A stretch of DNA of 64,000 nucleotides from Armatimonadota bacterium (GTDB lineage: Bacteria; Armatimonadota; UBA10988): contig JACRKZ010000067.1 in assembly GCA_016235455.1 (NCBI GenBank), forward strand, positions 1 to 64,000. Reading direction: 5' to 3'. A program made the position numbers and the translations under genes. Positions 1,154-11,235 of this stretch are shown piece after piece. The notes under the pieces are model-generated. The model was not told the DNA's origin, did not search any database, and saw only the letters and a program-made list of their open reading frames with translations. Position 1 is the first letter of the stretch, and every line of letters begins with the position of its first letter.

Positions 1154-8806
<7,653 letters not shown>

Positions 8807-8809
<3 letters not shown>

Positions 8810-8940
8810 CGCGGTCTCCTCTTGAATGCAAACACGACAAACAGCGGCGCGGCTGACAGCCGATTCCGCCGGGGAAAGGGGGTACGCGAAGGGGTCAGAT
8901 CGTGGGTGGTCGCCAGAACCGGCTGAGGAAGCGCCGCGAC
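8807..8940 (-). promoter_or_regulatory. Nested mRNA stem-loop able to sequester the secA SD and start codon
   Basis: Inner 12-bp stem CAGCCGGUUCUG (8925-8914) with CGGAAUCGGCUG (8868-8857); outer stem GUCGCGG..UUCCUC (8940-8925) with GAGGAG-A-CCGCGAU (8821-8808). Confidence 0.6.
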
Positions 8941-9257
8941 TCGGGCACCGTGGGCCGCGCCTCGGCATGGAGCGCGAGGGTCAGCCGCGCCGAACCGTCG
9001 GCCGCGGCGCGCACCACGCTCCAGTAGCGCGTCGGCGCCGGCTGAGCGGTCACCGCCTCCGCACGCTTGGCGGCTGGCGCGGCGTCGATGGTACGCACAA
9101 TCGACGCGCCGGGCAGGCCGCTGGCCGAGCCGAGCACCACCGCCGCGGGCGCATGTGAGAACACCGCCAGCAAGCCCAGCAGCGCAATGACGCTGCGCTG
9201 AGCCTGCCGCCGATGCCACTCATGCTGCATGGTCGGGGCGTGCATAGGTTCGTCCAC
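8895..9257 (-). CDS. Small exported protein upstream of secA; candidate SecM-like translation-arrest peptide (start may be 9257, 9245 or 9230)
   Basis: Basic plus hydrophobic signal (RRQAQRSVIALLGLLAVFSHAPA), C-terminal RRFLSRFWRPPTI*, 85 nt gap to secA, same strand. Confidence 0.6.
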   Translation of the reverse strand: MDEPMHAPTMQHEWHRRQAQRSVIALLGLLAVFSHAPAAVVLGSASGLPGASIVRTIDAAPAAKRAEAVTAQPAPTRYWSVVRAAADGSARLTLALHAEARPTVPESRRFLSRFWRPPTI

Positions 9258-9262
9258 TGCGT

Positions 9263-9291
9263 AGTGTACCCGAAGGCCGCTGGCGTGTCAC
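9263..9291 (-). promoter_or_regulatory. Sigma70-type promoter for the uORF-secA unit
   Basis: GTGACA-N17-TACACT on the minus strand; predicted start site falls near the GTG at 9257. Confidence 0.55.
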
Positions 9292-9395
9292 GCGCCCCCA
9301 AACCCGGCGACGTAGGATGCGCTCCGGCACGGAGTTCGGGCTCCATGGGCCCGTCGCGCCGATGGCGCTCCGCCGAACCTCCGAACCGACCCCGT

Positions 9396-9467: not shown

Positions 9468-9962
9468 ATGACGGACGAACAGCGCAAGGAACTCCTCGAA
9501 ACCATCCAGGACGACCCCATGGTCGACCGGGCCGAGTTGGCCGTGCGGCTGGGCATGGATGCCGCGGAGACCCAGGCCGAGGTGCAGCGCCTCGAAGCCA
9601 ATGGCATGATCAAGGCCTATCGCGCCATCATCGACTGGGACCGGCTCGAAGACGCACCCATCTACGCGTTTGTCGACGTCCACGTCAAGCCCGAGCCCGA
9701 TTCGGGGTTCGATGCCATCGCCCGGCGCATCGCGTTGTTCGACGAGGTGCACTCGCTCTACCTGATCAGCGGCGGCAAGGACCTGCTGGTCGTGGTCGAG
9801 GGCGGCGACTTCAAGGAAGTCGCGCTCTTCGTGGCCGAGAAGCTCTCGCCGCTCAAGGGGGTGGAGAGCACCGGCACCAGCTTCGTGCTGCGCAAATACA
9901 AGAAGGACGGCGAGCTCCTGCTGAGCGCCACAGAGGACACGCGACTGGCCATTGCTCCCTAG
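9468..9962 (+). CDS. Lrp/AsnC family transcriptional regulator
   Basis: HTH ELAVRLG..VQRLEANGMIKAY; RAM domain FDAIARRIALFDEVHSLYLISG; YugG/AlaR-like and paired with an aminotransferase. Confidence 0.9.
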   Translation: MTDEQRKELLETIQDDPMVDRAELAVRLGMDAAETQAEVQRLEANGMIKAYRAIIDWDRLEDAPIYAFVDVHVKPEPDSGFDAIARRIALFDEVHSLYLISGGKDLLVVVEGGDFKEVALFVAEKLSPLKGVESTGTSFVLRKYKKDGELLLSATEDTRLAIAP

Positions 9963-10047
9963 CCACGACGTCGCCCGGCGACGTCGTGGCAGCACCGAGC
10001 AACGCGTTACTCTGCCTTGTCGATTTGCCCCTAGAATGGCCAGGACT

Positions 10048-11235
10048 ATGGATACGATGGTTTCCACCGACCGCCGCACCGGTCGCATCAGTCAGCTTGT
10101 CGCGGATCTGCCGCCGTCAGGCATCCGCCGCTTCTTCGATCTCGTCGAGCAGACCGAAGGCGTCATCAGCCTCGGCGTGGGCGAGCCCGATTTCGCCACG
10201 CCTTGGACCTTCTCCACCGCCGCCATCACCGCACTTGAGGTCGGCCGCACCAACTACACCTCCAACCTCGGTCTGCTGAGCCTGCGCAAAGGCATCGCCG
10301 CGCACCTCGACCGCCGCTACGGGGTCACCTACGACCCGCGCGGCGAGGTGCTGGTCACCGTCGGCGTGTCCGAAGCGCTGGACCTGGCCTGCCGCAGCAT
10401 CCTCGATCCCGGCGACGAGGTCATCATCATCGAGCCCTGCTTCGTCAGCTACGGCGCTACGGTCAAGCTGGCCTATGGCGTGCCGGTGGCCGTCAGCACC
10501 CACGCCGAAGACCACTTCGTGCCGCGTATCGAGGCCATCGAAGCCGCCATCAGCCCGCGCACGAGGGCCTTTCTGGTCAGCACCCCGAGCAACCCCACCG
10601 GCGCGGTCATCGGCCGGCAGCGGCTGCTGGAGATCAACGAACTCGCCGCCCAGCACGACCTGCTGGTCATCTCCGACGAGATCTACGACCGGCTGTCGTA
10701 TGGCCCCGAGGGCCACACCTGCTTCGCCAGCCTGCCCGGCGCGCGCGAGCGGACCATCCTGCTCAACGGCTTCTCCAAGGCCTATGCCATGACCGGCTGG
10801 CGCATCGGCTATGCCTGCGCGCCCGGCGACATCATCGGCGCGATGAACAAGGTGCATCAGTACTCGATGATGTGCGCCTCGATCATCAGCCAGGAAGCCG
10901 CGCTGGAAGCGCTCAAGCGTGGCGAACGGCATGTGCAGGACATGGTCAAGGCCTACAACCAGCGCCGACGCATGGTGGTCGACGGGTTCAACCGCATCGG
11001 GCTGACCTGCTTCGAGCCGCGCGGCGCGTTCTACACCTTCCCCTGCATTGAGTCTACTGGGCTGGATGAGGAGACCTTCTGCGAGCGACTGCTCAATGAG
11101 CAGAAGGTGGCTACCGTGCCCGGCAGCGCCTTTGGCGCCTGCGGCGCCGGCCACATCCGGGCCACCTACGCCGCGAGCATGGAGCAGTTGCGCGAGGCCC
11201 TGGCCCGCATCGAGCGGTTCGTGCAGAGCCTCTAG
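10048..11235 (+). CDS. PLP-dependent aminotransferase class I/II (YugH/AlaT-like); start may be 10036, 10048 or 10057
   Basis: PSGIRRFF, SLGVGEPDF, PSNPTG, SDEIY, NGFSKAYAMTGWRIG. Confidence 0.92.
   Translation: MDTMVSTDRRTGRISQLVADLPPSGIRRFFDLVEQTEGVISLGVGEPDFATPWTFSTAAITALEVGRTNYTSNLGLLSLRKGIAAHLDRRYGVTYDPRGEVLVTVGVSEALDLACRSILDPGDEVIIIEPCFVSYGATVKLAYGVPVAVSTHAEDHFVPRIEAIEAAISPRTRAFLVSTPSNPTGAVIGRQRLLEINELAAQHDLLVISDEIYDRLSYGPEGHTCFASLPGARERTILLNGFSKAYAMTGWRIGYACAPGDIIGAMNKVHQYSMMCASIISQEAALEALKRGERHVQDMVKAYNQRRRMVVDGFNRIGLTCFEPRGAFYTFPCIESTGLDEETFCERLLNEQKVATVPGSAFGACGAGHIRATYAASMEQLREALARIERFVQSL

Follow-up and report, generated by a model that had tools for sequence, protein, structure and literature searches.

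Directly upstream of secA, the 64,000-nt stretch of DNA analyzed here (the window) carries a small upstream ORF (uORF) that is conserved, translated, of exported type, and invariably linked to secA, and whose product ends in an arrest-type motif on a tether of fixed length. Judged by sequence comparison, the uORF has all of the attributes by which Sec-monitoring arrest peptides are recognized in silico, and we consider it likely that its product is a genuine monitor of this kind acting on secA. We infer that the nascent chain would stall the ribosome, that force would release it, and that the stall would be coupled to secA. A preliminary description of the locus had proposed a new SecM-like monitor upstream of secA. 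That proposal is supported by the synteny, the export signal, the R-P-P-T ending, the constant spacer, and the lack of database relatives, whereas the W-R-P-P motif and the hairpin that it included are not supported.

Coding status and promoter of the uORF

The uORF (Table 1) has an alternative GTG start at 9257, which would give a product of 120 aa, and it ends at a TGA stop (8897-8895). Exactly 85 nt (8894-8810) separate this stop from the secA ATG (8809-8807); an ORF of 110 to 120 aa ending 85 nt before secA, as first described, is therefore confirmed. At its C terminus, the product reads ...RRFLSRFWRPPTI, also given as ...PESRRFLSRFWRPPTI. When the uORF was compared with that of a close relative, 15 of the 20 listed nucleotide differences fell at codon position 3 (P = 1.7e-4). 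An overlapping plus-strand ORF (8826-9158) was rejected as a gene; the differences sit on its codon positions 1 and 2. Because the uORF has conserved homologs and its differences are concentrated at codon position 3, the comparison indicates a conserved coding gene that forms the first cistron of a uORF-secA operon. Synonymous codons vary across loci at the invariant R, P, P, and T, which argues that selection acts on the peptide.

Contigs from three RNA libraries, derived from a relative that is ~92 to 96% identical, cover positions 8902-9294 and 8504-8853 and leave out 8854-8901, a gap that carries no evidential weight. One of these contigs extends ~38 nt upstream of the predicted transcription start, so that DNA carry-over is possible and the RNA-library cover is no proof of uORF transcription.

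Table 1. Features of the uORF-secA region, in window coordinates
Feature	Position	Strand	Remarks
uORF (candidate Sec-monitoring arrest peptide)	8895..9245	-	116 aa from ATG 9245, plus stop; M1 conserved in at least 90% of 20 sequences
Promoter-like sigma70 site GTGACA-N17-TACACT	9263..9291	-	-35 GTGACA 9291-9286; 17-nt spacer; -10 TACACT 9268-9263; consensus scan
Export signal (predicted)	9159..9221	-	Residues 9-17, n-region E-W-x-R-R-Q-x-Q-R; residues 18-29, SVIALLGLLAVF as hydrophobic core
Central R-Y-W, residues 73-75	9021..9029	-	Y74 and W75 invariant in 20/20; Y also kept by all of the 8 most divergent
Arrest-type motif F-L-S-R-F-W-R-P-P-T, residues 106-115	8901..8930	-	R112, 8912-8910; P113, 8909-8907; P114, 8906-8904; T115, 8903-8901
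12-bp stem, 5' arm CAGCCGGUUCUG (S-R-F-W codons)	8914..8925	-	In the MFE of some folded contexts only; would lie inside a ribosome stalled at R-P-P
12-bp stem, 3' arm CGGAAUCGGCUG, in spacer	8857..8868	-	No counterpart in 8 other loci
uORF-secA spacer	8810..8894	-	85 nt; SD GAGGAG at 8821-8816
secA	1154..8809	-	2551 aa; starts MAKIHAPRR...; Pfam SecA_DEAD, PP_bind, P-loop, split SecA_SW, SEC-C

The uORF had been credited with a sigma70-like promoter of its own, and a matching site is present. A consensus scan of the region found 2 sites, compared with 0.1 expected from shuffled sequences, and 7 of 9 related loci keep the arrangement [GC]TGACA-N17-TAnnnT just 5' of the uORF ATG, the other two (G001 and M029) having a clear -10 box only. 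The gap between the -10 box and the uORF ATG is 17 nt in the window and 6 nt in G006, M028, and M029 (TATAAT, TACAAT, and TAGAAT, respectively). With so short a gap, these three loci probably produce the monitor mRNA without a leader. Divergent transcription from the same promoter region of the window would read two candidate ORFs (together ~9470-11235, plus strand). The first begins MTDEQRKELLETIQ... and resembles an Lrp/AsnC-type regulator by eye; the second, at 9952-11235, is aminotransferase-like.

Distribution of the family and linkage to a giant SecA

The preliminary description had made its reading depend on conservation of the ORF in relatives, and such relatives exist. A protein search of 61 related genomes gave full-length matches, extending to the last residues, in five other genomes, and a profile built from six sequences detected uORF homologs in six of the seven genomes of the host's GTDB class within Armatimonadota. 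In the seventh genome (G002), the secA match begins at about residue 32 at a contig end (G002:C57, contig end at 40108); the 5' end of secA is cut by this contig end, and the apparent absence of the uORF there is thus an assembly gap. Outside the class, homologs were found in 0 of 394 genomes by a profile search of 401 sampled genomes of the phylum in which only 11 candidates per genome were scored; only the six match. Global protein searches returned 19 matching proteins in 5.8 billion clusters and 17 in 1.84 billion representatives, and the source names of the matching database proteins were Armatimonadetes or Fimbriimonadaceae. One of these 17, P0026, was set aside as an unrelated 571-aa repeat protein that matches profile positions 10-50 only. 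Searches of Pfam (E <= 0.01), NCBIfam, and the PDB yielded no relative of the uORF product; PDB profile matches to Phactr1 peptides (E = 0.009) were regarded as chance hits.

Linkage to secA is complete among the loci for which DNA is available: secA lies 40-129 nt downstream of the uORF in 9 of 9 cases, including three metagenome contigs. Two members of the family with an R-A-P-T ending, P0027 and P0029, entered the analysis as proteins. A second monitor was sought in genome G000 and none was found; a crude filter for a signal-like N terminus combined with a RAPP-like tail gave 15 small-ORF candidates, none of which shares a contig with yidC (C167) or with secDF (C30).

The secA gene of the window is the only SecA_DEAD gene in a 93%-complete genome (single match to PF07517). 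The family co-occurs with giant SecA proteins of about 2494-2552 aa, and a giant SecA is common to its members, whose secA frames stay open for 2552, 2528, and at least 2494 aa. Within the SecA protein of the window, the region of amino acids ~850-2400 contains ~20 tandem divergent repeats of ~72 residues that are inserted in the wing/scaffold domain and split Pfam SecA_SW in two. The repeats take the form F[IV]R...L..L...[WFY]-P-[LIV]...L, as recognized by motif spacing and MAFFT alignment; blastp of SecA against itself gave no off-diagonal match at 1e-3. Our literature search found no description of a giant SecA with such repeats.

Conservation of the encoded peptide

Conservation was assessed in an alignment of 20 sequences comprising 6 genome loci and 14 database proteins, from which P0003-P0006 and P0010 were excluded as identical to locus translations. 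Family members are 113-124 aa long and share 31-48% overall identity between genera; conservation is concentrated in the signal region and the last 10 residues, and the middle is variable. Fourteen positions are invariant (E9, R12, R13, Q14, R17, G24, L25, Y74, W75, L107, R109, R112, P113, and P114), and T115 is conserved in at least 90% of the aligned sequences.

The N-terminal signal sequence of the preliminary description is supported by hydropathy. In the window, 3 positive charges are followed by a 12-residue core with a mean Kyte-Doolittle value of 2.77; across the alignment, 3-5 positive charges precede a 12-residue core (Kyte-Doolittle, 2.17-2.88) in 20 of 20 sequences by this hydropathy measure. 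The distance from the hydrophobic core to the second Pro is 84-90 residues in all 20. Between these two elements, the Tyr-Trp pair lies ~39 residues before the Pro-Pro, roughly a tunnel length, and a semiconserved R-L-x-L lies ~25 residues before the Pro-Pro.

The C-terminal motif of the family can be written [FWY]-L-x-R-[FLC]-x-R-P-P-T and lies 1-6 residues before the stop. W-R-P-P had been put forward as the arrest motif. However, position 111, which is W in the window, reads W, Q, V, R, L, C, or I across the family, and the conserved part is R-P-P-T. Among the eight members that diverge most, no C-terminal residue is invariant apart from R and the second P, and in M027, which stands outside the 20-sequence alignment, Q replaces the first R of the motif. 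P0027 ends in ...FLRAPTG and P0029 in ...LLRAPTD, each with a single Pro (R-A-P-T). Because these two divergent members end in R-A-P-T, the core of the motif is, on alignment, R-x-P, spaced as in the RAPP/RAPG arrest peptides. R-x-P is followed by T in 18 of 20 sequences, by N in 1, and by L in 1 (P0025).

The distribution of conserved residues bears on whether the uORF could instead encode an ordinary small exported or membrane-anchored protein, cotranscribed with secA (for example, as a partner of the giant SecA), whose C terminus serves as a binding or sorting signal and causes no arrest. Most of the mature part is poorly conserved, as expressed in the low identity between genera, although Y-W and R-L-x-L are kept there and the narrow range of lengths could mean a folded protein. 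Co-occurrence with giant SecA is what such a partner would lead one to expect; an export signal, on the other hand, is unexpected on a partner of cytoplasmic SecA. The invariance is concentrated instead in the last 10 residues, 1-6 residues before the stop, and the R-x-P core occurs both as RPPT and as RAPT, an alternation that known arrest motifs also show. We therefore judge an ordinary protein of this sort to be unlikely.

The invariant di-proline raises the further alternative of a plain EF-P-sensitive Pro-Pro pause that would tie secA translation to EF-P or Pro-tRNA status and not to secretion force. A precedent for caution is uA_LPPP, whose in vitro arrest with Escherichia coli ribosomes is, according to the accessible text of Fujiwara et al. 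2024 (PMC10987492), suspected to be an artifact of missing EF-P. Yet two members of the present family carry a single Pro in R-A-P-T, a pause of this type leaves the conserved export signal and the constant tether without a role, and EF-P is reported to leave RAPP arrests unaffected (Sakiyama et al. 2021, PMC7897499, portions available). An EF-P-dependent pause is thus very improbable as the explanation for the family.

RNA structure around the secA SD

In the full model of the preliminary description, a stall at W-R-P-P melts a hairpin in which the S-R-F-W and S-R-R-F-L codons take part, so that the secA SD becomes exposed, on the pattern of SecM. Both complementarities are present in the sequence. 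The duplex of CAGCCGGUUCUG with CGGAAUCGGCUG comprises 12 bp, including 2 G-U pairs, at -22.2 kcal/mol, and the S-R-R-F-L codons UCGCGG/UUCCUC (8939-8925) are complementary to GAGGAG..CCGCGA (8821-8809). The MFE contains the 12-bp stem when 199 nt or 483 nt are folded, the 5' arm of the stem would sit under the stalled ribosome, and 0 of 1000 shuffled spacers reached the stem energy for that one arm. That the pairing is meaningful, however, is not upheld by comparison with shuffled sequences. The folding energy equals that of shuffles (z = 0.37 for 171 nt and -0.14 for 483 nt), and the SD of the window was paired as much or more in 76 of 100 shuffles. When any arm in the last 60 nt was considered, the real stem was equaled in 31 of 300 shuffled spacers, and stronger duplexes with the spacer, reaching -30 kcal/mol, are formed by uORF 15-mers located ~80 nt upstream of the R codon. 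Conservation of the stem upstream of secA in relatives was likewise not borne out: the stem was not conserved in the 8 other loci, including that of same-genus G001, with which only the SD-to-start segment aligns, and it was found in this genome alone.

Folding was also modeled with and without a ribosome footprint, using contexts of 45, 60, 75, and 90 nt upstream and footprints that place the first Pro or the second Pro in the P site or a ribosome queue over the whole uORF. The results change with context, and no single structure was relied on. In the window, the SD pairs mainly with the spacer (0.34-0.64), and its pairing with the S-R-R-F-L codons ranges from 0.00 to 0.27 depending on context. 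In the 60-nt context, accessibility of the SD fell from 0.39 to 0.23 or 0.17 when the stall was modeled, and in the 90-nt context it changed little (0.35 to 0.41); the S-R-R-F-L codons lie 5' of the footprint of the stalled ribosome and are free to pair, so that the modeled stall leaves accessibility unchanged or lower. The predicted freeing of the window SD by a stalled ribosome was thus not reproduced. In these models, the hairpin drawn in the preliminary description is probably not the RNA step of the coupling, and with the W of its arrest motif also not conserved, we regard the complete hairpin scheme as an unlikely account of this locus.

Across the nine loci, the unpaired probability of the SD ranged from 0.02 to 0.45 and was no lower than in shuffles in 8 of 9; SD pairing exceeded that of shuffles (0 of 100 as paired) in M027 only. 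The predicted partner of the SD varies. It is formed by arrest-site codons in G003, G004, and M027 (p 0.70-0.98) and partly in G005 (0.35), loci with spacers of 40-51 nt; by spacer sequence in G000, G001, M028, and M029; and by upstream codons in G006. The modeled stall raised SD accessibility in 4 or 5 of the 9 loci, according to which Pro was placed in the P site, and not in the window. As modeled, therefore, the short-spacer loci agree with a SecM-like scheme, the SD being paired to codons under the stalled ribosome, whereas the window locus does not. The 129-nt spacer of G006 contains GAGAUUU/CAGAUUU units in several copies, which are predicted to fold into a long hairpin with perfect pairing, unlike the other loci.

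The stall might instead be coupled to secA by blocking Rho loading or RNase access on a C-rich segment after the stop, as in tnaC, or by RNA switches that are specific to each lineage. Such diversity would sit well with the nine loci, which have no common SD-sequestering structure, and with the pairing of the SD to arrest codons that is confined to the four loci named above. For the Rho or RNase route, the spacer of the window begins CCCCUUCGCGUACCCCCUUUCCCC, which is C-rich and G-poor, but this tract was not seen in G006, a scan of the region found 0 intrinsic terminators, and nothing in the data points to Rho; this route is speculative. Taken as a whole, a coupling of these other kinds is possible, though not probable.

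Proposed mechanism

In the mechanism that we propose for a secretion monitor, the N-terminal signal would engage the Sec pathway while the C-terminal L-x-R-[FL]-x-R-P-P-T, with its R-x-P core, would most likely arrest the ribosome at the peptidyl-transferase center. In the stalled state, the P-site tRNA would carry ...R-P-P and the A site Thr-tRNA, or Pro would be in each site one codon earlier. The T or N that follows R-x-P is consistent with a P site occupied by R-P-P and an A site occupied by Thr; a Pro/Pro stall is equally possible. Pulling by the translocon on the tether of ~85 residues would then release the arrest. Poor export would prolong the stall and lead to more translation of the sole secA gene, 85 nt downstream. 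Weighing against a monitor, RPPT is not among the motifs shown to stall in the accessible text of PMC10987492, and P-P is followed by L in one member and by N in another.

A bolder version of this mechanism would make R-P-P-T a mechanistically distinct arrest module. Thr-tRNA, and not Pro-tRNA, would be the blocked A-site substrate, and the chain would be read along the whole tunnel through the invariant L at -5 and R at -3 (relative to the R of R-P-P), R-L-x-L ~25 residues upstream and, close to the tunnel exit, Y-W at a distance of ~38 residues. The almost fixed tether of 84-87 residues would act as a force ruler, and the module would have coevolved with the sole giant SecA, perhaps to report an unusual mode of translocation, with the uORF mRNA leaderless in some members. 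We put this elaboration forward as rather unlikely.

Significance

Secretion-monitoring arrest peptides are a small and experimentally rich set in which each new motif has shown another way to disable the peptidyl-transferase center. The present family introduces no new principle, because the 2024 survey, in its accessible parts, had already found such peptides to be patchy and widespread (PMC10987492). By sequence, the family appears to belong with the RAPP-like secretion monitors, and its R-P-P-T variant and its host lineage are undescribed in the searchable literature. It adds to the set (i) an R-P-P-T/R-A-P-T variant that may tie the RAPP-like core, R-x-P, to a Thr A site and (ii) a candidate from an uncultured class of Armatimonadota that has an unusually constant tether and is linked to a giant SecA. 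For direct testing of the family, GFP-AP-LacZ and PURE assays have been published.

Comparison with known arrest peptides

The arrest motif of SecM from E. coli is FxxxxWIxxxxGIRAGP. The family described here has in common with SecM the logic of a uORF-secA operon, an export signal, a C-terminal motif with R-x-x-P, and an arrest site near the stop; it differs in that its motif is not that of SecM and in that no SD-sequestering stem-loop could be shown by the folding analysis. The uORF product matched 0 Pfam families at E <= 0.01, and so did not match the SecM family (PF06558); the description of the peptide as having no obvious similarity to SecM is therefore accurate.

Four in silico criteria for arrest peptides that monitor Sec or YidC have been set out by Fujiwara et al. 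2024 (PMC10987492, as given in its accessible text). They correspond here to a short uORF without a known family directly upstream of secA (9 of 9 loci, 40-129 nt), to an N-terminal secretion signal or transmembrane segment (20 of 20 sequences by hydropathy only), to C-terminal conservation among homologs (20-sequence alignment), and to a signal-to-motif spacer exceeding 30 residues (84-90), which falls in the long range reported for Sec monitors. The RAPP-like query motifs of that survey, as far as its text is accessible, include RAPP, RGPP, RAPG, RAPT, RAGP, QAPP, HAPP, RDGP, and others. RPPT and RPPN are not in this list, and RAPT occurs in P0027 and P0029 only, so that most of the family falls outside the RAPP-like (RQH) query set.

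The family and its motif appear to be absent from the published catalogue, so far as it is searchable. In the secA uORF table of PMC10987492, 8 rows are from Armatimonadota, at least 5 of them Fimbriimonadales or Armatimonadales (term counts give 5 Fimbriimonadales), and the class studied here is not represented among the legible rows. The strings EWQRRQ and QRRQ occur in no uORF of that table within the searchable supplements. A term search of a 2025 EMBO J paper on RAPP-like sequences, in its searchable text, did not return RPP, RPPT, or RAPT, and a full-text literature search for arrest peptides in Armatimonadota returned one paper, which is unrelated.

A neighbor in host lineage is uA_RQH_Fimbriimonadales, from the class Fimbriimonadia of the same phylum, which is likewise encoded by a uORF upstream of secA, has a signal peptide, and stalls ribosomes experimentally (PMC10987492, accessible text). 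Its motif is R-D-G-P, however, and its sequences, as far as they can be read there, begin MFPLLP... or MLSLIP..., end ...SRDGPL.., and are unrelated to this family. From another phylum, uA_LPPP of Phycisphaerae (Planctomycetota) is also encoded upstream of secA and stalls with Pro in the P site (PMC10987492, accessible text), and it shares with this family a proline-run motif within the last 15 residues of a secA uORF. As described there, uA_LPPP needs L-P-P-P or X-P-P-P, whereas the present family has two consecutive prolines after an invariant Arg; two consecutive prolines were all that was found in 20 of 20 sequences, which places the family outside uA_LPPP.

The closest resemblance is to the RAPP-like (RQH) peptides encoded upstream of secA or secDF and to ApcA, ApdA, and ApdP, as these are described in the accessible text of the two papers cited. 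Like them, the family is encoded by a small unannotated uORF belonging to a sec gene, and its members begin with an export signal that a long spacer separates from a C-terminal Arg-x-Pro-x, a few codons short of the stop. It differs from the RAPP-like peptides in that its main motif is R-P-P-T and no sequence similarity extends outside the motif, in its additional invariants (relative to the R of R-P-P, L at -5, R at -3, and Y-W ~38 residues upstream), and in the nearly fixed length of its spacer. ApcA stalls with R-A-P on the P-site tRNA, the three residues proximal to the peptidyl-transferase center are strictly required, and the best A-site residues after Pro for ApcA and ApdP include Cys, Asn, Thr, and Ser (PMC7897499, portions available). 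The T or N that follows R-x-P in the present family matches these reported A-site preferences.
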